A stretch of DNA of 56,756 nt from a virus (Duplodnaviria > Caudoviricetes): positions 1-56,756 of the IMG/VR virus record IMGVR_UViG_3300044730_000684. One strand, given 5' to 3'. The notes under the pieces were generated by a model, which was not told the origin of the DNA, searched no databases, and worked only from the letters and a program-made list of their open reading frames with translations. How positions within the stretch are numbered: the first letter of the stretch is position 1; each line of letters starts with the position of its first letter. Both the position numbers and the translations under genes were made by a program. Shown here in pieces: positions 4,185 to 49,677 of the stretch.

Positions 4185-4832
4185 ATGCCAGCCGCAATGA
4201 CCTTTACCAGTTTGCAGTCGGACATCCGCAACTACCTTGAGCGTGGTGGGGCAACGGACCCGATTGTCTTTGAACAGATTCCGCGTCTCATTACGCTGGC
4301 TGAGCGTCGGATTGCGCGTGAGCTGAAGATCCAGGGTTTTCAGAATGTGGTCACGATGACCATGCAGTCTGACGTTGCCGTGTATGCAAAGCCGGATCGG
4401 TGGCGCGATACCATCAGCATTAACTACGGCACCGGCACGGGCAACAACACGCGGGTTCAGGTCTATCCAAGATCGTATGAATATGTGCGTGAGTATTGGC
4501 CAAACGAAACCGAAACCGACCCGCCAAAGTTTTACGCTGACTACAATTACAACTACTGGATCTTTGCCCCAACGCCCGATGCGGCGTACCCGGTAGAGAT
4601 TCTGTATTACGAACTGCCGCCGCTGTTGGATGATACGAATCAGACCAACTGGTTGTCGGAGTACGCGCCCAACTTGTTGCTGTATGGGTCGCTTGTGGAG
4701 GCGACGCCGTTTGTAAAGGACGACCAGCGCGTACAGTTGTGGCAGTCCTACTACGACCGCGCTTTGGCGGCGTTGAATGGTGAAGACTTACAGAAGATCG
4801 TTGATCGGTCTACGAATCGTCGGGAGGCTTAA
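4185..4832 (+). CDS. Head-tail adaptor / tail tubular protein A-like
   Basis: I.LAE.RI.REL, FAP.PD..Y.VE..YY and TNWLS..APNLLLYGSLVEA pattern; size and position in the tail operon. Confidence 0.65.
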   Translation: MPAAMTFTSLQSDIRNYLERGGATDPIVFEQIPRLITLAERRIARELKIQGFQNVVTMTMQSDVAVYAKPDRWRDTISINYGTGTGNNTRVQVYPRSYEYVREYWPNETETDPPKFYADYNYNYWIFAPTPDAAYPVEILYYELPPLLDDTNQTNWLSEYAPNLLLYGSLVEATPFVKDDQRVQLWQSYYDRALAALNGEDLQKIVDRSTNRREA

Positions 4833-4834
4833 CA

Positions 4835-6031
4835 GTGCCTAGCTTTACTCAAACTTTCGGCGGAACGAACATCTATCCAAGTGATGTCTCGTACCGTTAT
4901 GTGTCCCTGACGATTGATCAGGTGCTGGACTGGCCGCTAGAGACTGCGCCGTCAAATGATGTCGTGGCATCCATTATGGATGTTAATGCGACGACGACCA
5001 GCCTTGTCATTACGATGCCGGATGCGCGGGATGCAAGTACCGGCGAAACGGTGTTATTTAATAACGTCGGTTCTAACACCTTTACGGTCAAGACCAGCAC
5101 GGGCGTGCAAATTTGCGCACCCACTTCGGGCAGCACGTTTCAGATTTACCTGACGGACAACAGCACGGAGTCTGGAGCTTGGCGTTCGTTCCAATATGGT
5201 GCATCGGCTTCGGCTGCGAACGCGGCGGCACTTGCGGGTCTTGGGCTGAAGGCGATTGCGACGACGCTGAATCAGTCGGTTCCGGTCAGTACTTTTAGCA
5301 CCACCTACACCGCTGCCACGAGTGACCGTGCTAAGGCATTGGTATGGACGGGAGGCGCAGGGACTCTTGCGTTTGATACTGCCCCTACTCTGGGCAACGA
5401 CTGGTTTGTCAATGTCCGCAATAGCGGCACAGGCGATCTGACGCTAAACCCAAGCAGTTCAGAGACGATCAACGGTGAGCTGACTCTTGTGTTGTCTCCG
5501 GGTGACAGCGCGATTGTCGTTACAAACGGCGTACAGTTTTGGACGATTGGCTTTGGTCAGTCTGCTGTATACGCTTTTAGCTTGCTTCAGATTGATGTAT
5601 CGGGCAGTGGAAATTACACGCTGTCAATTGCGGAACTGAACAAGACGGCTTATGTGTTTACTGGCACGCTGACGGGTAATCGGGACATCATTGTTCCGAC
5701 CACGGTGCAGCAATACTGGGTCAGCAATCAAACCTCTGGGTCTTATACGCTTGGAATGCGTACATCTGGTCAAGCCAGCCCCGGTGTCACGGTAGCAGCC
5801 GGTGCCCGAGCCATTTTGTACTGCGACGGAACAGATGTGGTGGATGCCGACACGGCAACGATTGCCATTCCGGTTACCGTGGCTCAAGGCGGAACTGGCG
5901 CAACAACGGCTTCTGGAGCAAGAACCAACTTGGGCGCAACGTCGATTGGTAACGCGGTCTTTACGGCTGCGAGTACTTCTGCGGCGCAGATTGCGCTGGG
6001 TCTTGACCCGATTGAAGGCGGTAGTTACTGA
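4835..6031 (+). CDS. Tail structural protein (beta-rich, fibre or baseplate-like)
   Basis: GTG start; Thr/Ser/Gly-rich; VAQGGTGATTASGARTNLG fibre motif; ends IEGGSY. Confidence 0.7.
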   Translation: MPSFTQTFGGTNIYPSDVSYRYVSLTIDQVLDWPLETAPSNDVVASIMDVNATTTSLVITMPDARDASTGETVLFNNVGSNTFTVKTSTGVQICAPTSGSTFQIYLTDNSTESGAWRSFQYGASASAANAAALAGLGLKAIATTLNQSVPVSTFSTTYTAATSDRAKALVWTGGAGTLAFDTAPTLGNDWFVNVRNSGTGDLTLNPSSSETINGELTLVLSPGDSAIVVTNGVQFWTIGFGQSAVYAFSLLQIDVSGSGNYTLSIAELNKTAYVFTGTLTGNRDIIVPTTVQQYWVSNQTSGSYTLGMRTSGQASPGVTVAAGARAILYCDGTDVVDADTATIAIPVTVAQGGTGATTASGARTNLGATSIGNAVFTAASTSAAQIALGLDPIEGGSY

Positions 6032-7641
6032 TGCCACTTCAGCCGGTCATCGTTCGCTCCGAACCCGGAATTAAGCGGGACGGAACGAAGTTTGAAGGTA
6101 ACTTTTATGTTGACGGGCAATGGGTCCGTTTTCAACGTGGGTTGCCGCGTAAGATCGGTGGGTATCGCGCACTCCAAGATCGACTGGATGGCATCGCCCG
6201 TGGCATGCACATTCACAATCATAATGGTTATACCTATGTCCACATAGGTACGGCAGCGGGCGTGTTTCGTTTTCGTCTCAGCCAGAACGGACAATCCAGC
6301 ATTGTTACCGATCGCACGTACAGCGGATACGTCGCCAACTCCGATAACCTTTGGCAGTTTGATGTGGCGTTTAACACCACAAACAGTCAGAACGAAATTT
6401 TGGCTCATGCAGCGCCAAACATCGAAGACATCTCTTCAGATGCTGCGGGTCAGCTTTATCAAGGTTTTGATAACGGAACGAGCGAGTTGGTCCCGGTTTC
6501 TGGCATTACCGTCTCTGGCGGTATCGTAGCCCTTGCTCCGTATGTGTTTGCGTATGGATCAGATGGCTTTATCCAATGGAGCCGCGCAGGGTACACGGAT
6601 GACTGGTCCGGCGGCGATGCTGGTGAGGCGCGTGTTACGAGTCAAAAAATCGTTAAAGGATTGCCTCTACGATCCGGTGCCGGTAACGCGCCATCTGGAC
6701 TTTTCTGGTCATTGGATTCAGTCATTCGTGCGACGTATGTTGGCGGTGCTGCTGTATTTCAGTTTGACACCATTACCTCGCAGTCAAGCATCCTCTCTTC
6801 GCAGAGCGTGATTGAGTACGACGGTATTTACTTCTGGTGCGGTGTTGACCGTTTCTTGATGTTTAACGGTGTCGTGCGTGAAGTGCCGAACTCGCTGAAC
6901 CTGAACTGGTTCTTCGATAACCTAAACTACTCTCAGCGCCAGAAAGTATTTGCTTTTAAGGTTCCGCGCTGGGGCGAAATCTGGTGGTGTTACCCGAGGG
7001 GTAATGCAACTGAGTGTACGCATGCCGTCATTTACAACGTTCGTGAGAATACGTGGTACGACACGGAACTCCCGAACGGCGGACGCTCTGCGGGTCAATA
7101 TGCGCAGGTGTTTAGTTCACCCCTCGTAGTAGGTGTGATTGATACCGAAACGGTTCAATTCCGTGGAACGCAAGATACAGAGCGTCGCGTAACAGAAGAC
7201 GATCAACCGCGAATCATTAATGACCCAAAAGGTTATGTGGTTTGGCAGCATGAATACGGAACGGATGAAATTAATGGCGACAGGATTCGCCCCATACAGT
7301 CTTACTTTGAAACGGCGGATATGTCTTTGGTTGCGGCACCTGAGCCACAAAACATGGCTGTTCGTGTTGAGTACATGGAGCCAGATTTTGTTCAGTCTGG
7401 AAACATGACCGTACAAGTTACGGGTAGAGCAAATGCTAAAGCAGGCGAAGTAACAAGCGATCCTCAAACAATTTATGCAACGCTAACGGATCGTCAGCAG
7501 CAGCTTGTCTACTTCCGCGAGATTCGTCGAGAAATGCGCTTTCGATTTGAGAGCAACACGGTTGGCGGGAACTACCAGATGGGGCAGATCATTGCCCATA
7601 TCGAACCGGCTACGGGTACGGTCCTTGGAGAGAATCCATGA
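6031..7641 (+). CDS. Tail nozzle / head-stabilisation protein (tail tubular B-like)
   Basis: 536 aa, beta-propeller-like composition, VRFQRGLPRKIGG start, EIWWCYP...VIYN..E.TW; lies just before the ejection genes. Confidence 0.65.
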   Translation: MPLQPVIVRSEPGIKRDGTKFEGNFYVDGQWVRFQRGLPRKIGGYRALQDRLDGIARGMHIHNHNGYTYVHIGTAAGVFRFRLSQNGQSSIVTDRTYSGYVANSDNLWQFDVAFNTTNSQNEILAHAAPNIEDISSDAAGQLYQGFDNGTSELVPVSGITVSGGIVALAPYVFAYGSDGFIQWSRAGYTDDWSGGDAGEARVTSQKIVKGLPLRSGAGNAPSGLFWSLDSVIRATYVGGAAVFQFDTITSQSSILSSQSVIEYDGIYFWCGVDRFLMFNGVVREVPNSLNLNWFFDNLNYSQRQKVFAFKVPRWGEIWWCYPRGNATECTHAVIYNVRENTWYDTELPNGGRSAGQYAQVFSSPLVVGVIDTETVQFRGTQDTERRVTEDDQPRIINDPKGYVVWQHEYGTDEINGDRIRPIQSYFETADMSLVAAPEPQNMAVRVEYMEPDFVQSGNMTVQVTGRANAKAGEVTSDPQTIYATLTDRQQQLVYFREIRREMRFRFESNTVGGNYQMGQIIAHIEPATGTVLGENP

Positions 7642-7884: not shown

Positions 7885-10800
7885 ATGAGTCGTTTTTACA
7901 CCTATGGTGACATCCCTGACGTAAGAGGGGAGTTTTACGAAGAAGGACCCAGTGGTCTTGGTTTTTTTTCTGAACCATCGTTTGACTACTCACCTGTATT
8001 TTCGCAGCCTTTAGAAGATGCTCCTTTAAGTTACTTTCAAGATGATCGACAACTAGAGTTGGATCGTCAGGCTGAAGAGAGACGCCAGTTTGAACTTTTT
8101 GAAGCACAGCGCAGACAGGCTGAGCAAGAATATGCTCGTCGCCTTGAACAAGAGCGTGCAATTGAACTTGCTCGGCAACAACAGATTGCGCGTGAGCAAG
8201 AGGCTGCGCGACAAGCAGAAGCTGCGCGTGTTGCTGAAATGGTCCGTCAGCAGGAGATGGCTCGACAAGAAGCATTAAGACAGCAAGAGATGGCTCGTCA
8301 AGAGGCATTAAGACAACAAGAGATTGTTAGACAGCAAGAAATGGCTCGTCAAGAAGCGGAGCGTCAGCGTCAGGCTGAGATTGCTCGTCAGGCTGAACTT
8401 CAGAGACAGGCCGAAATGCTGCGCCAACAAGAAATGGCGCGTCAAGAAGCTCTTCGTCAAGCAGAAATGGCTCGTCAACAAGAGATGGCTCGACAACAAG
8501 AGCTTGCAAGACAAGAAGTTGAGCGTCAGCGACAAATTGAAGTTGCGCGTCAGCAGGAAATTGCAAGACAAGAGGCTGCTCGTCGCGCAGAAGAATCTCG
8601 TCGTGCAGAGGATTTAAGGCGTGTTGAGCAGCAACGTATTGCCGAGGAGACTCGTCGTGCAGAGCAGGCCCGTCTTGCTCGTGAAGCACAACTAGCGCGA
8701 GAAGCCGAGGTTGCTCGTAGAGCAGAAGAGGAAGCAACCAGTCGTCGTCAAGCCGAGGCTGCAAGAAGAGAGCAGGAGCGTGTTGCTGCTGAGCAAGCGC
8801 GTCTTGAGCAAGAACGGGCTGCTGAAGCGCAGCGTCAGGCTGAGATTCAGCGTCAGGCCGAACTGCAACGCCAAGAAACAGAGCGTCAGGAAGCTGCCCG
8901 TCGCCAAGCGGAAATGGCAGAGATGCAACGTCGTCAAGCGGAGCAAGAAAACTCTATGCGTGTTGAGCAAGAGCGTCAAGCACAACTTCAGCGTCAGCAA
9001 GAGCTGGCTGATTTGCAGCGTCGTGAAGAGGCTCGTAGGGCAGAAGAAGAGCGAGCAAGAATTCCAACTCCTCAAGAAGAAGTTGCTATTTCACAACCGC
9101 CGCTTAGTCAGGTTGGAGATGAGTTAATTCCGCAAGCTCCTCCTGAAGATCCAATGCGTGGAGTTAGTGGTCCGGAAATGTTTCGTTGGTCAGACGGGAC
9201 ATATCACTTTAGACCTGAAGAATCTGGTCAAAGAACTCCAATTGATCAGCTTCCTGACTATTATCGTCGCTTAACTGAAGAGGCTTTGGCTAAGTCGCCT
9301 CTGCAAGATATTCCAGACTATATGCGTCAAAATCTTGTAGGGCCGTCTCGCACTCCTCCAGAAATGCCTGAAGAATTAATTCCCACTCCTCGCGGGGAAA
9401 ATGTTCCGATTTCACCGCTTACCTCGCTGCCTAGTGGCCCAGACCCAATTAGCGACTCTTGGGGATATCGTGGTGAAAATGTTCCGGTAGCGCCGCTTGA
9501 AAGTTTACCCGGACCGGGATTGGCTGGAGATGATGGAAGACTTCCGCGTGGGGAGGACGTTCCGGTAGCGCCGCTTTCTGCCCCAACCTCCTCTGGAGCA
9601 GCGCCATCAAATTGGCTTGAAAACATGAAGCAATTTACTGGTGGCGCTACACCATCTCCGCTTGCTTACCTTTCAACCAAAGGAACAGGAGGTGCTAACA
9701 TTCAAGAAGGCACTCCTCAAAAAACGCTTTCTGATCTTCTTAAAGCAAACAAATTTGAAGAAGCATTTAAATTTGCTGAAGCAAACAATCTTCAACAATT
9801 GCTTGCTGTTCCTGCTTATCTTAGGGACCTTCGTGATCCATTTACCAAAGAAGAAGCGCAACAGTTTTTAAACGCTGCTCCAGCAAACTTTTTGCCAAAC
9901 CTTTCCGGTACTGGAAATCTTGAAAAGTTTACATTTGATCCGCGTGGTGCGGCAGAGCGTGGCGCTTTTGGGTGGATGGGGTTTGACGAAAAAGGTCAAC
10001 CTATTGCATCTGAAACTGGGTTTCCAAGACTTGATGCGGCTTGGAAAGTTGAAGAACTTGATCCTAAAGAAAGCATTTTTCAAAAAATATTTAAAGCTGC
10101 TGCGCTTGCCACTGCCGTTGCTGGGGGTGCGCAACTTCTTGGTGGAGTAGGCGGCGCTGGTGGCGCCACGGCAGGTGGGGCTGCTGGAGGTGCTGGAGCA
10201 GGTGCTGGCGGATTGGCTCCGGTGATTCCTGCTGGCGTTCTTCCCGGATCGACTGCGGCTGCACTGGGTGGTGGATTGCAGACATTTGTTATTCCCGGAA
10301 CCGCAGCCGCTGGGGGTCTTGGCGCAGCCGGAACCGCTGGTCTTATTGGCGGCGGACTTGCTGCCTCTCAACTTGGCGGCGGGGCTGCGGCTGCGCCTAC
10401 GGCATCGACTGCTCCAACCACGCCTGTTGATCCACTTCAAGAAATTCTTGTCACCGGATCAAAAGTTCCCCCCGCTAGTTTAAGCGCAATCGGCCCCGGC
10501 ACTTTGGCATCTTTAAACTTGATGCGCGGTGTCAGCGATATTCCGGTAGACATTTATGGAAGACCTGTTGAGCCACCTCCGGCAGAAGCTCCGCCTGAAA
10601 CGCCGCCAGAAGAGCCGCTTAAGGAAATCCTTGTTACCGCACCTAAACCTATTTCTGCCTTAGATATTGCAGCGGGTGCTACGGTGCCTGCGCTTTCTAA
10701 AACAATTGCAGACATGGGGTACAGAGCGCCTGCTTTTGAAGGAACTCCGATTGAGAATATCCCTGAAGTTGTTGTTCAAGGAACCGCTCCAAAGCCGATT

Positions 10801-11589
10801 GACTTAACTTCGGTTGTTGGTCCCTTGACTGCTGCTCAACTAACGCAGGGCTTTACACAGCCTCAAGTTGATCCAACAACGGGTGAACTTAAAGAGCCGC
10901 CTAAGACGCAGCAGGAGTTGGATGCTATTGAAGAAGCCTTGAAGACCGGCAAACCAATACCGGGAACTGCAAGCGTTGTTGATAAAATTAAGGACGCTTA
11001 CGATAAATATAAGAAAATTAAAAGTATTGCGCAGATTCTTGGCGGTCTTGGTGCAGCCGCTACTGGGTATAAAAAACCAGTTGCCACAGCAGCAGCACCC
11101 CCCACAGTTTTAGGCGGCGCGTTGCCGAAGTACACTTATGCCCGTCAGCAACTGAGCCCAGACATTGATTACTACACCTACGGCACTCGACCGGAGGCGC
11201 GGTTCTTTGAACAGGGGCTTAAATTAGAACAGCCTACGCAACCTGAGCCGCCGCAACTTCCGCCCTCTAAGCCACCGGGTGATGAGCCGGTCTTTGCCAC
11301 GGGCGGTCTGACGGGCTATGCCAAGGGTGGTAGCAAGAAGTCCCGTTACGTTGCTGGCCCCGGCTCCGGACGGGATGACAAAATCCCGGCGCTGCTGAGC
11401 GATGGGGAATACGTGATTGATGCTGAAACGCTGGCTCTGCTCGGGGACGGCTCGACCAAGGAAGGTGCTCGGCGCATGGATAAGTTCCGTGCTAATATCC
11501 GCAAGCACAAGGGTCGTGCCCTATCGCGTGGCCGGATTAGTCCAAACGCAAAATCGCCTAGTAAATACATGGGCGGAGGGTTGACCTAA
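7885..11589 (+). CDS. Large internal virion (ejection) protein, 1234 aa
   Basis: About 330-aa E/R/Q/A helix, Pro-rich repeats, Gly/Ala hydrophobic segment, C-terminal GPGSGRDDKIPALLSDGEYVIDA domain; follows the nozzle gene. Confidence 0.75.
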   Translation: MSRFYTYGDIPDVRGEFYEEGPSGLGFFSEPSFDYSPVFSQPLEDAPLSYFQDDRQLELDRQAEERRQFELFEAQRRQAEQEYARRLEQERAIELARQQQIAREQEAARQAEAARVAEMVRQQEMARQEALRQQEMARQEALRQQEIVRQQEMARQEAERQRQAEIARQAELQRQAEMLRQQEMARQEALRQAEMARQQEMARQQELARQEVERQRQIEVARQQEIARQEAARRAEESRRAEDLRRVEQQRIAEETRRAEQARLAREAQLAREAEVARRAEEEATSRRQAEAARREQERVAAEQARLEQERAAEAQRQAEIQRQAELQRQETERQEAARRQAEMAEMQRRQAEQENSMRVEQERQAQLQRQQELADLQRREEARRAEEERARIPTPQEEVAISQPPLSQVGDELIPQAPPEDPMRGVSGPEMFRWSDGTYHFRPEESGQRTPIDQLPDYYRRLTEEALAKSPLQDIPDYMRQNLVGPSRTPPEMPEELIPTPRGENVPISPLTSLPSGPDPISDSWGYRGENVPVAPLESLPGPGLAGDDGRLPRGEDVPVAPLSAPTSSGAAPSNWLENMKQFTGGATPSPLAYLSTKGTGGANIQEGTPQKTLSDLLKANKFEEAFKFAEANNLQQLLAVPAYLRDLRDPFTKEEAQQFLNAAPANFLPNLSGTGNLEKFTFDPRGAAERGAFGWMGFDEKGQPIASETGFPRLDAAWKVEELDPKESIFQKIFKAAALATAVAGGAQLLGGVGGAGGATAGGAAGGAGAGAGGLAPVIPAGVLPGSTAAALGGGLQTFVIPGTAAAGGLGAAGTAGLIGGGLAASQLGGGAAAAPTASTAPTTPVDPLQEILVTGSKVPPASLSAIGPGTLASLNLMRGVSDIPVDIYGRPVEPPPAEAPPETPPEEPLKEILVTAPKPISALDIAAGATVPALSKTIADMGYRAPAFEGTPIENIPEVVVQGTAPKPIDLTSVVGPLTAAQLTQGFTQPQVDPTTGELKEPPKTQQELDAIEEALKTGKPIPGTASVVDKIKDAYDKYKKIKSIAQILGGLGAAATGYKKPVATAAAPPTVLGGALPKYTYARQQLSPDIDYYTYGTRPEARFFEQGLKLEQPTQPEPPQLPPSKPPGDEPVFATGGLTGYAKGGSKKSRYVAGPGSGRDDKIPALLSDGEYVIDAETLALLGDGSTKEGARRMDKFRANIRKHKGRALSRGRISPNAKSPSKYMGGGLT
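8245..8580 (+). repeat. Degenerate coding tandem repeats (RQQEMARQEAL-type)
   Basis: 33-bp units at 8245-8277 and 8278-8310 plus further degenerate RQxExA units. Confidence 0.85.
9391..9576 (+). repeat. Three coding repeats with a 78-bp period (RGE[ND]VP[IV][SA]PL)
   Basis: Units start at 9391, 9469 and 9547. Confidence 0.9.
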
Positions 11590-13028
11590 TGGGTGTCCTA
11601 GACTTTCTTTTTGAGGGCAGCGCCCCGACTCCCGGCACAACGACCGGAACCACCACTGTTCAATTGCCTGAGTGGTACACCCAGTACACCACCGACATGC
11701 TGGGGCGTGCTCAAGCAGCCGCAAACCTTCCGTATGCCCAGTATGGCGGTCCTCGGATTGCCGGGTTTACTCCGACTGAGAGAGCCGGGTTTGAGGCTAC
11801 CAAAGCCGCAGCGGCGGCGTATCAGCCTTTCCTACAGCAAGCCGGTGCCACTTTGGGTCAAGCAGGCGGAGTTAGCGGGATGGCAGCGGCTGAGCCAACA
11901 TTTGCCCAAGCGGCGGGTATGAGAGGTGCCGTTACGGCAGCGCCTTATTTTACTCAGGCCGGAGGGATGTCTGGATTAACGGCAGCTCAGCCCATGTTTA
12001 CGCAGGCCATGGCTCCGATTCAGCAGGCCGGTCAAGCATCGGCAGTAACCGCAGCCAGTCCCTTCTTGGCCGGTGCAGCTCGCACGTTCCCGCAGGCGGC
12101 TCAGGAATACATGAGTCCCTATCTCAAAAACGTCGTGGAGCAGATTGGCGACATTGGCGTGCGTCAGCTTCAAGAGAAATATCTTCCAGCGGTCGGCCAA
12201 GAGTTCATCCAAGCCGGTCAGTTTGGCGTGGGTCCGGGCAGCACCCGCATGGGCGAGTTTGGCGCTCGGGCGTTGCGCGATGTGAACGAAGCCATTATTG
12301 CCGAACAGGCCAAGGCGCTACAGGCGGGATACGGGCAGGCTGCGGACATTTACGGTCAGGATGTGGGTCGCTTGGCTCAGCTTGCCGGTACGGTCGGTCA
12401 GCTCAGCACGGCGGATTACAACCGGCTTCTTGAAAGCGGTGTTCGCATTGCCGACATTGGCGCAAAGACTGGACAGCTTACGAGTGACGATGCACAAAGA
12501 CTGGCCGAGATCGGAAAAGTAACAGGCACTCTTACGCAACAGGATGCCGCCAACCTTGCGCGAATCGGAGAGGCAAGAGGTCAGCTCTCTCAGCAAGATG
12601 CTGCCAATCTTCAGGCGCTGGCATCGAAGTACTCCATGCTCGGAGAGGCTTCTCAAACGATGGGCTTGCGAGGCGGAGAGGCTATTACCGGCGTTGGCGA
12701 AAAAGAGCGTCAGATGCAGCAGGCCAATCTCAACTTGGCCTATCAGGACTTCTTGCGTCAGGAGCAGTACCCGAAAGAGCAGATCAAGTTCTTGTCGGAT
12801 GTGCTTAGTGGCGTGCAGTTGCCTTCAACAACGGTTCAGACCAAAACAGAAATGCCAGCAATGCCGGGGGGTGCTTCTGGAATTGAAAAAGCAATCTCTG
12901 GTGGGACCGGAATAGGAACTCTTATTGATTTGTATAAAAAGTTCTTCCCATCCGGGTCAAGCGGCTCAACTACTATGCCAGACGTAGATTATATAGATGA
13001 GCTTCGACGGCTTGGCATTTTGAAATAA
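11589..13028 (+). CDS. Internal virion / DNA-transfer protein
   Basis: Y.GPRIAGFTP and YMSPY...V motifs, Gln/Ala/Gly-rich helices with 16- and 18-aa repeats, YQDFLRQEQYP. Confidence 0.75.
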   Translation: MGVLDFLFEGSAPTPGTTTGTTTVQLPEWYTQYTTDMLGRAQAAANLPYAQYGGPRIAGFTPTERAGFEATKAAAAAYQPFLQQAGATLGQAGGVSGMAAAEPTFAQAAGMRGAVTAAPYFTQAGGMSGLTAAQPMFTQAMAPIQQAGQASAVTAASPFLAGAARTFPQAAQEYMSPYLKNVVEQIGDIGVRQLQEKYLPAVGQEFIQAGQFGVGPGSTRMGEFGARALRDVNEAIIAEQAKALQAGYGQAADIYGQDVGRLAQLAGTVGQLSTADYNRLLESGVRIADIGAKTGQLTSDDAQRLAEIGKVTGTLTQQDAANLARIGEARGQLSQQDAANLQALASKYSMLGEASQTMGLRGGEAITGVGEKERQMQQANLNLAYQDFLRQEQYPKEQIKFLSDVLSGVQLPSTTVQTKTEMPAMPGGASGIEKAISGGTGIGTLIDLYKKFFPSGSSGSTTMPDVDYIDELRRLGILK

Positions 13029-46206: not shown

Positions 46207-46605
46207 ATGTCAGCATTGGATGAGGCTTTTCCTAGTGTAGAGCCGGGTTTGGTTCCGTTTGGATCGCGAGTGCTAGTACAGATTCGCTCGGCAAAGAAGA
46301 CTTCTTCGGGTGGCATTATTCTGCACACCGAGACTCGTGAGACAGAGATCTGGAATACCCAGATCGCGAAGGTGGTCACCCTTGGACCGTTGGCGTTCAA
46401 GAACCGCAATACGATGGAATCATGGCCGGAAGGTAATTGGTGCAAACCGGGCGATTTTGTCCGAGTGCCAAAGTACGGCGGAGATCGTTGGAAAGTGCCG
46501 TATGGCAATGACGGGGAGGAAGAAGCCCTGTTTGTAATTTTCAACGATTTGGACATCGTGGGTGGCGTAGTGGGCGATCCGCTAGCCATCAAAGCGTTTA
46601 TCTGA
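46207..46605 (+). CDS. groES: GroES-like co-chaperonin
   Basis: PFGSRVLV, TSSGGIIL mobile loop, VV.LGP, GDFV...KYGG, FNDLDIVG. Confidence 0.9.
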   Translation: MSALDEAFPSVEPGLVPFGSRVLVQIRSAKKTSSGGIILHTETRETEIWNTQIAKVVTLGPLAFKNRNTMESWPEGNWCKPGDFVRVPKYGGDRWKVPYGNDGEEEALFVIFNDLDIVGGVVGDPLAIKAFI

Positions 46606-48762: not shown

Positions 48763-49677
48763 ATGGCAGTCCCAATGCGTAGTACTGACTTTCGTTCCAT
48801 TGTTGAGCCTATTCTTAACGAGGCTTTCGATGGCATTTATGACCAGCGTGCTGACGAGTGGAAGCAAGTATTCGTCCAGCAGCAGGGCATTCCCCGCAAC
48901 TACCACGAAGAGCCGGTTCTGTACGGATTCGGCGCTGCTCCGGAACTTCCGGACGGCACCCCGGTCACGTATGACGCTGGCGGCGTGCTCTTCTTGCAGC
49001 GTTACGTCTACAAGGTCTACGGCCTTGCATTCGCGCTCACGAAGGTACTCGTGGAAGACGGTGACCACATCCGTATCGGCCAGACCTATGCCAAGCACTT
49101 GGCGCAGTCGCTGATCGAGACGAAGGAAACCCTCGGCGCTAACATCCTTAACCGCGCTTTCACCTCCGGCTACAACGGCGGTGACGGTGTGACGCTTGTT
49201 GCGACGAACCACCCGATTGCTACGGGTACGTTCAGCAACCAGCTCACGACCCCGGCGAACCTGTCCCAGACCTCGCTTGAGCAGATCCTCATTCAGATCC
49301 GCAACGCTGTTGACAACAACGGCAAGCGCATCCGTTTGAACCCGGAGAAGCTCGTTGTGTCGCCGTCGAACGTGTTCCAAGCGGAAGTGCTCCTCAAGAG
49401 CGTTCTCCGTACTGGCACGGCTGACAACGACATCAACCCGGTGAAGTCGATGGGCCTCCTCGCTGGCGGTCAGGCCAACCTCTCGCGTTTGACCTCGACC
49501 ACCGCTTGGTGGGTGAAGACGGACGCGCCGGAAGGTCTGAAGCTGATGATGCGTCGTGGCCTTGAGAAGAGCATGGAAGGTGACTTCGAAACCGACTCCA
49601 CGCGCTTCAAGAGCACGGAGCGTTATGCGTTCGGATGGACCGATCCTCGGACGGTCTATGGCACAGCTGGCGTTTGA
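48763..49677 (+). CDS. Major capsid protein (HK97 fold, Mu gpT-like annotation class)
   Basis: 304 aa; GGDGV.L....HP, L...SLE, P.KL.V, DFET...RFK..ERY.FGWTDPR; GGAGG RBS; terminator after. Confidence 0.9.
   Translation: MAVPMRSTDFRSIVEPILNEAFDGIYDQRADEWKQVFVQQQGIPRNYHEEPVLYGFGAAPELPDGTPVTYDAGGVLFLQRYVYKVYGLAFALTKVLVEDGDHIRIGQTYAKHLAQSLIETKETLGANILNRAFTSGYNGGDGVTLVATNHPIATGTFSNQLTTPANLSQTSLEQILIQIRNAVDNNGKRIRLNPEKLVVSPSNVFQAEVLLKSVLRTGTADNDINPVKSMGLLAGGQANLSRLTSTTAWWVKTDAPEGLKLMMRRGLEKSMEGDFETDSTRFKSTERYAFGWTDPRTVYGTAGV

Follow-up and report, generated by a model that had tools for sequence, protein, structure and literature searches.

How the proteins of short-tailed phages and the first DNA they deliver cross the periplasm, and which energy source drives this step, are long-standing questions. 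Here, we ask whether a phage virion protein could draw on the host TonB system by carrying its own TonB boxes, the short peptides that bind the C-terminal domain of TonB by strand addition. The question is raised by an open reading frame (ORF) for a protein of 1234 amino acids (aa) at 7885..11589 (+ strand) of the virus record IMGVR_UViG_3300044730_000684, which represents an uncultured short-tailed phage and is a complete record of 56,756 base pairs (bp) with direct terminal repeats that is referred to below as the window. From its translation, its place in the gene order, weak family matches and analogy, the product is read as a large internal virion protein (ejection or tape-measure-like) that would be expelled at infection; the label 'large ejection protein' used for it in a preliminary description of this DNA comes from gene order and weak family matches and not from proteomics. 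The protein contains three short motifs that resemble TonB boxes. We put the probability that the family as a whole carries a TonB-box mimic, of which these motifs are diverged copies and through which the phage exploits host TonB, at roughly 45%.

Three TonB-box-like motifs lie in predicted unstructured linkers

Translation of 7885-11589 confirmed the three motifs that the preliminary description had reported, all on the + strand. Motif 1, LQEILVTG (slot 1; aa 851-858, 10435..10458), is followed by SKVPP; motif 2, LKEILVTA (slot 2; aa 912-919, 10618..10641), by PKPIS; and motif 3, IPEVVVQG (slot 3; aa 959-966, 10759..10782), by TAPKPID, so that the K.P or APKPI sequences noted earlier after each copy could be read directly in the translation. 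The motifs had also been placed just past a Gly/Ala segment, and motif 1 indeed begins shortly downstream of a Gly/Ala-rich, moderately hydrophobic stretch delimited by composition and hydropathy per 30-aa block (aa 733-840; 10081..10404, + strand). This stretch contains up to 14 Gly and up to 10 Ala per block, is modelled with low values of the predicted local distance difference test (pLDDT) and is a candidate membrane-inserting segment. The amphipathic stretch said to follow the motifs was recovered only in part, as short predicted helices at aa 925-930, 936-943 and 983-991. Some 50 aa ahead of motif 1, inside the Gly/Ala-rich stretch, we additionally noted a possible fourth, decayed copy, LQTFVIPG (10273-10299, aa 797-805); at the equivalent position the 89% identical homologue P0005 reads LPEIVITSSKV.

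All three motifs are captured by the pattern [DE][IVLTM][IVLM]V[TQSE][AGS], hereafter the strict pattern. It occurs three times in the 1234-aa protein compared with a mean of 0.021 in shuffled versions, and at least three occurrences were seen in none of 20000 shuffles; the same held when aa 601-1234 were shuffled alone. Translated in all six frames, the 56,756-bp window gave no further occurrence.

In an AlphaFold2 model of aa 601-1234, built with a 75-row alignment, the three motifs fall in segments at aa 839-885, 911-920 and 945-966 (fragment residues 239-285, 311-320 and 345-366). Because all three have a pLDDT below 50 and no secondary structure there, the motifs are not buried in a fold according to the model, and the concern about burial raised in the preliminary description is not borne out.

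The motifs are conserved across the protein family

When aa 640-1234 were used as the query of a word-indexed search, 255 proteins were retrieved at E<=0.001, all from metagenomes or uncultured viral genomes; the 120 of these that were listed served as the family sample. A full profile-free search of 1.84 billion representatives retrieved 5159 at E<=0.001, most having only the C-terminal domain in common, a domain that is present in thousands of otherwise different phage proteins.

The strict pattern was present in 87 of the 120 listed homologues, with one copy in 34 proteins, two in 26, three in 16, four in three, five in six and six in two, and in 31 of 122 further proteins from the profile-free search. 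From 197 distinct instances we derived the consensus P-L-[ED]-E-[VI]-V-V-[T>E,Q]-[G>A]-[ST]-[RK]-P-P. Read by eye, 21 of the 33 homologues without the pattern contain close variants (LEEVTVTAKKP, LEEITVTGKKP, EVVVKGTKP, LDEVVIETDKP), six contain PPVVVT[SP]P and six contain nothing convincing. Several family proteins carry four to six copies with a period of 44-48 aa, indicating tandem duplication of the unit.

In the 75-row alignment, the three slots form conserved islands amid the variable columns of the Pro-rich linkers. Slot 1 retains L851 in 68 rows, E853 in 55 and V856 in 69; slot 2 retains L912 in 58, E914 in 67, V917 in 58 and P922 in 72; and slot 3 retains E961 in 70, V962 in 63, V964 in 67 and P969 in 67. 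Conservation and enrichment among homologues, which had been proposed as a check on the idea, therefore hold at the level of the family. The same layout is seen in gp066c of Caulobacter phage RW (580 aa), where a Gly-rich stretch is followed by PVDEIVVTPSQP and VDELVIKPP.

The conserved residues could also be read as cleavage sites for a maturation protease. The prohead protease of T4, which processes internal proteins, cleaves after L/I-x-E, and [LI]-x-E followed by hydrophobic residues is found in all three window motifs and in the consensus. Cleavage would not, however, need the conserved V-V-T-G-x-[KR]-P downstream. In addition, no prohead protease was found among the scanned ORFs of the window, in which 48763-49677 encodes a capsid protein (PF25209) and the ORFs of the structural region are without a protease family. 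We consider proteolytic processing a very improbable explanation.

The family consensus resembles the TonB boxes of transporters

We scanned the DNA of one genome per prokaryote species for EEVVVTG, which gave at least 120 loci with 121 instances (one 18-aa frame was left out), and 120 pieces spanning -30 to +220 aa around the motif were then scanned for the Plug domain. Among the matches listed, Plug lies directly downstream of EEVVVTG in 96 of the 120 bacterial pieces, and these occurrences, at least four in five, are therefore transporter TonB boxes. Several of the pieces without Plug are contig-end cuts or out-of-frame matches. The 1234-aa protein is itself not a TonB-dependent transporter, since it has no Plug or 22-strand barrel; Plug (PF07715) had no match anywhere in the window.

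The flanks of the heptapeptide, which were unconstrained by the search, are similar as well. L occupies position -1 in 52% of transporters and in 66% of phage contexts, the G is followed by S or T, and the next position is R in 27% of transporters and R or K in 96% of phage contexts. Two 10-mers, LEEVVVTGSR and LEEVVVTGTR, are shared letter for letter by transporters (L007, L026, L057; L017, L028, L117) and 12 family proteins.

An independent matrix was built from the 30 top Plug matches in two Caulobacterales genomes, picked regardless of whether a box was present. In 28 of the 30, a box that fits [VIL]-x-[EDx]-[VIL]-[VIT]-V-T-[AG]-x-[RK] lies just upstream of Plug, and these 28 were used for the matrix, with substitution-matrix pseudocounts. 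A site scoring at least as high as the weakest real box was found in 50 of the 120 family proteins (103 sites) and in none of 120 shuffled proteins, and the median best score was 14.7 for the family compared with 1.5 for the shuffled proteins. In gp066c of phage RW, VDEIVVTPSQP reached 16.2 bits. The family thus fits the general form of real boxes, [LIV]-x-[ED]-[VI]-[VIT]-V-T-[AG]-x-[RK]. Since the Plug context, the flanks and the independent matrix agree, the likeness of the family to TonB boxes is, in terms of sequence, specific and strong.

Some members of the EEVVVTG-scanned set deserve separate mention. Two loci on Brevundimonas genome contigs (L046 and L064) are non-transporter ORFs of 544 and 495 aa in which EEVVVTGSR lies beside poly-Pro and far from the N-terminus; their products may be periplasmic proteins with a TonB-box-like motif. 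One member of the set matched vWF_A.

Similar boxes occur in unrelated phage proteins

A scan of IMG/VR for EEVVVTG gave 120 loci, among them 18 family-like ORFs and 47 other long ORFs. A box framed by [LIVM] before and [KR] after was present in 9 of 38 distinct long-ORF contexts, compared with 0 of 29 short, presumably spurious, frames. Two tail-tube-cap-like proteins (L217:875-2095 and L218:41-1255, both + strand; phrog_230, E ~1e-44) carry one or two LEEVVVTG[TKR][KR] motifs in an N-terminal extension. Among 120 tail-tube-cap homologues (P0245-P0364), the strict pattern was found in 13, a relaxed pattern within the first 110 aa in 27 and a real-box score in 14, and the distribution of the box is patchy, spanning 46-100% identity.

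Outside the family, [LIV]EEVVVTG followed by K or R is also found in large phage ORFs of 511-1890 aa, either in N-terminal contexts or in contexts rich in Pro and Lys. One of these, at L164:1335-4298 (- strand), has a 'virion structural protein' PHROG match, and those at L137:4750-6888 (- strand), L190:2547-4079 (- strand), L211:8671-10545 (+ strand) and L168:6660-12329 (+ strand) have no match. Because the box recurs in tail-tube-cap-like and other unrelated phage proteins, the comparison suggests that phage proteins with plausible access to the periplasm have gained it on more than one occasion. It is possible, and we propose it only tentatively, that at least two unrelated virion families (ejection or tape-measure-like proteins and a subset of tail-tube-cap proteins) carry working TonB boxes and, once in the periplasm, hijack TonB-ExbBD, so that the proton-motive force (PMF) pulls the ejection proteins, and the DNA along with them, out of the virion.

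The same scan also contained proteins of ~525 aa (L136:5969-7558, - strand; L183:6214-7782, + strand; and the near-identical IMG/VR loci L123, L139, L145, L219, L187 and L216) with a signal-peptide-like N-terminus, EEVVVTG and then a sequence, RNGVP.ND..GW.DFG, that by eye looks plug-like. The phage contigs may thus carry small genes of a transporter-like type. A structural-module gene of a pelagiphage, annotated 'TonB-dependent receptor' and taken by its describers as a hint to the receptor (PMC10504331), is perhaps of this kind.

The window copies are diverged

On the window sequence alone, the case for a TonB box is weak, and a number of findings count against this reading. Motifs 1, 2 and 3 score 10.0, 2.5 and 6.3 bits with the matrix, compared with 16.9 to ~34 bits for real boxes, a range that derives from two Caulobacterales genomes and may not be the box repertoire of the window's host. 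Among 28,745 window positions, motif 1 ranks first or second, motif 3 sixth and motif 2 outside the top 10, and an unrelated window peptide, VETLAVTASGN, scores 10.7-11.9 bits, level with motif 1. The core shared by motifs 1 and 2 is likewise not specific to transporters. A scan of 401 sampled same-phylum genomes for E-I-[LF]-V-T-[GA] gave matches in 176; none of the 29 loci examined (excluding one locus from an unpublished genome) showed the context of a transporter N-terminus, six showed that of ATP-synthase beta, and Pfam found no Plug in any of eight pieces.

Neither the G+C content of the window (52%, unlike the ~67% of Caulobacter) nor a search for transfer RNA genes, which found none, gave a clue to the host. 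Complex prediction of aa 896-945, which include motif 2, with E. coli TonB (TONB_ECOLI, residues 148-239) gave 0.23 and 0.20, with the mark at 0.32, for a stand-in TonB from a different host and without controls, a result that speaks neither in favour of binding nor against it. No such motif was found in any frame of at least 150 aa of the distant relatives HTVC027P and CRP-902, a negative that weighs neither way because their equivalent proteins are not detectably homologous. Taken together, the three window motifs do stand above chance, since the k-th best window score was reached in only 19, 2 and 9 of 2000 shuffles (10, 2 and 3 with a larger pseudocount). The TonB-box function suggested in the preliminary description is thus upheld in part: the consensus, the matrix and the Plug context of the family speak for it, whereas the window copies lie below real boxes and their core EILVT[GA] is not transporter-specific in the sampled genomes.

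At family level, further departures from transporter boxes add to the points on this side. Variants such as EVVVKG and EEVTVETERE depart from transporter boxes, and the repeat unit is longer than the box, with an added K-P-x-x-x-[DS]-L that transporters do not share. Such a unit could instead be a structural beta-strand repeat of the phage machinery, involved in self-assembly of the conduit or in docking within the tail, portal or capsid, in which case the likeness to a TonB box would be convergent. Copy number that varies by tandem duplications, alternating variants that resemble generic amphipathic strands and the occurrence of the window core in ordinary folded enzymes are all consistent with this. 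A generic strand is not, however, expected to hit the exact transporter 10-mer including its flanks or to recur at the N-terminus of the unrelated tail-tube-cap family, and in bacteria the heptapeptide is nearly restricted to TonB boxes among the matches listed. Moreover, the AlphaFold2 model shows no structure and no intramolecular partner for the motifs. We regard a purely structural role as unlikely.

The T position of the box bears on a different partner, as it is occupied by E in 17% and by Q in 13% of the family instances. Rather than TonB, the peptide could add a strand to another periplasmic protein, most likely TolA of the Tol-Pal system or else an envelope protein with an open beta-sheet edge. 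The N-terminus of TolB binds TolA by strand addition, the C-terminal domains of TolA and TonB are structurally alike, and both filamentous-phage g3p and the group A colicins have TolA as their partner. In two Caulobacterales genomes, the TolB N-termini read QIEVDINAG and QDVVVDEG; because these are close to EVVVEG and EVVVQG, a Tol-system partner fits some of the variants, a comparison drawn from two TolB sequences. The poor match of the window copies to real TonB boxes points in the same direction. On the other hand, the majority consensus equals the transporter TonB box over 10 residues, and EEVVVTG is transporter-specific in bacteria by the Plug count given above. An alternative periplasmic partner of this kind appears rather unlikely to us.

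Finally, the window copies might be decaying remnants with no present function, with activity confined to the canonical boxes of relatives. Their scores, which fall under the real-box range, would fit such decay, and the closest listed relatives, P0002-P0006, have the same diverged forms. These forms are themselves conserved in P0002-P0006, however, at 60-89% overall identity, and the key L, E and V positions are retained. Loss of function is in our view improbable. Since P0007-P0022 (47-65% identical over the matched part) carry canonical boxes, the window copies are drifted or host-adapted orthologues of these boxes, and we continue to favour a TonB-box mimic shared by the family and diverged in the window.

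Organization of the protein and its gene neighbourhood

From the N- to the C-terminus, the protein consists of a short conserved N-terminus, a charged Q/E/A/R repeat of ~350 aa, a Pro-rich region, a folded small domain, the Gly/Ala-rich hydrophobic stretch of ~100 aa, the motif-bearing Pro-rich linkers, a helical region and a strongly conserved C-terminal domain. The charged repetitive segment (ARQQEMARQEA-type, ~aa 55-405; 8047..9099, + strand, read from the translation) contains hardly any residues other than Q, E, A, R and M, and the underlying DNA has tandem repeats at 8248-8563 with periods of 18-33. Judged by eye, the segment is probably a long helix or coiled coil and may serve as a very long helical spacer. 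It is a lineage-specific insertion: most homologues are only 735-1000 aa long, and P0005 (1305 aa) is among the few of comparable or greater length.

The small domain at aa 601-725 (9685..10059, + strand) is confidently folded in the AlphaFold2 model, with a pLDDT of 86-95 in 10-residue blocks over fragment residues 11-70, and its residues F24, A27 and A31 are invariant in the 75-row alignment. Foldseek with the model of aa 601-1234 gave no match in the PDB at E<=0.001, and a PDB sequence search returned low-complexity noise only, with no match for this domain.

The conserved C-terminal domain (aa ~1135-1234, GPGSGRDDKIPALLSDGEYVIDAE...RKHKG; 11287..11586, + strand), recognized from PHROG matches and the alignment, is nearly invariant across the family, with ~40 invariant columns in the 75 rows. 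Over aa 1135-1187 only, it matches phrog_25241 (E 3.2e-5) and phrog_6090 (E 7.6e-5), 'tail length tape measure protein', and it is 63.6% identical to proteins of Caulobacter phages RW, KcrB, RLK and GB2A, the GB2A gene being annotated 'tail length tape measure protein'. A tblastn search with the whole 1234-aa protein matched only the C-terminal ~65-77 aa, in 6 records, and megablast of 9800-13000 against phage records gave no match. A Pfam scan of the protein found no family at E<=0.01, and neither homology to T7 and P22 ejection proteins nor a lytic domain was detected in PHROG and Pfam scans. We also observed the peptide YTYG twice, in FYTYGDIPD at the N-terminus (7894-7911) and in YYTYGTRPEA near the C-terminal domain (11173-11187); both are part of the alignment consensus.

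The window encodes a terminase, an 844-aa portal, a capsid protein, an SU10-type adaptor, a helicase, a primase and a Cas4-type exonuclease. The motif-bearing ORF lies inside a tail/ejection gene block, downstream of adaptor/nozzle-type genes; it is preceded by the adaptor (4185-4832; Pfam PF24175, E 5.8e-30), an ORF placed by gene order (4835-6031) and a virion protein matching phrog_3287 (6031-7641), and directly followed by a 'DNA ejection protein' with a weak phrog_4287 match (11589-13028). The order is the same in Caulobacter phage RW. By portal, the nearest cultured phages are RW, KcrB, RLK and GB2A of Caulobacter vibrioides (57% identity, 100% query coverage), and farther cultured relatives are Roseobacter phages CRP-901 and CRP-902 and Pelagibacter phages HTVC023P and HTVC027P. 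Because cultured Caulobacter phage relatives exist, the idea that the protein engages TonB is directly testable, and in a model host that is non-pathogenic. Between the portal and capsid genes, the window also contains a gene for a GroES-like co-chaperonin (46207-46605; Cpn10, E 3.1e-7), and co-chaperonin GroES genes are annotated in HTVC027P and CRP-902 as well.

Proposed mechanism and comparison with known systems

If the family proteins do carry TonB-box mimics, entry could proceed as follows. The protein would be carried in the phage head and leave it through the short tail during infection, and its Gly/Ala-rich hydrophobic stretch would enter a membrane or join a trans-envelope conduit. 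The Pro-rich unstructured linkers that follow would then hang in the periplasm and show between one and six strand-forming peptides, which in most relatives have the form L-E-E-V-V-V-T-G-[ST]-[RK], as presented to TonB by transporters. Host TonB would capture such a peptide as an added beta-strand of its C-terminal domain and, by analogy with TonB-dependent bacteriocins, the ExbB-ExbD motor would use the PMF to pull on it. The force could aid the release of the ejection proteins and of the leading end of the DNA from the virion; alternatively, it could keep the conduit tethered at the inner membrane. The action of tandem boxes as a ratchet, suggested in the preliminary description, is purely conjectural.

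Such a mechanism, if true, would directly link a virion protein to the PMF-driven motor of the host and would explain energy-dependent entry in a large, environmentally widespread phage group. It would also lead one to expect phage-resistance mutations of a new class, and trade-offs, in tonB and exbBD. Were it to hold for both virion families, phage genome delivery would have a general energy source that has so far escaped recognition, and the TonB-dependent import of bacteriocins would have its counterpart in phages.

The closest sequence parallel is with TonB-dependent transporters, whose boxes directly upstream of Plug correspond to the family consensus LEEVVVTG[ST][RK] and, like the phage motifs, lie in an unstructured segment. 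The phage motif differs in being internal, in its one to six copies set in Pro-rich linkers, in its K-P...D-L extension, in the absence of a Plug or barrel and, in the window, in the divergence of the copies. As a protein, the family resembles podovirus ejection proteins (T7 gp14/15/16, P22 gp7/16/20) and siphovirus tape-measure proteins in gene position, size, hydrophobic Gly-rich segments and a C-terminus that matches tape-measure PHROGs. Unlike the T7 and P22 proteins, with which it shares no detectable homology, it carries a TonB-box-like motif; none is reported for those proteins in the literature searched.

Phages T1, phi80 and H8 need TonB and the PMF, which is the dependence proposed here to arise from a phage-borne box; in their case it is ascribed to the receptor (FhuA, FepA). 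Passages in a 2024 review of TonB-dependent transport present phages solely as users of receptors, with no mention of a phage-borne TonB box (PMC11658791). In the full-text literature, a scope that did not include subscription journals and supplements, we found no virion, ejection or tape-measure protein of a phage described as carrying a TonB box.

A virion protein that engages the periplasmic domain of a PMF-coupled inner-membrane protein as a co-receptor for entry has a precedent in g3p of filamentous phages, which binds TolA. There, a folded domain of g3p contacts TolA, whereas the present family would act through a short linear TonB-box-like motif.

The closest functional analogy is provided by group B colicins, some pyocins and pesticin, which carry their own TonB box in a disordered region and are pulled into the cell by the Ton motor. 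In both cases, an exogenous protein would show a TonB box in a disordered region to the host machinery. As soluble toxins, these bacteriocins enter by threading through a transporter, and their box is usually single and N-terminal; the phage protein, in contrast, is a putative virion protein that would arrive via the phage tail and carries several internal boxes. TonB-box mimicry is established for bacteriocins, and the TonB dependence of phages has been ascribed to the receptor. Our comparisons lend partial support, from sequence, to the view that such mimicry extends to a new carrier, the virion proteins of phages.

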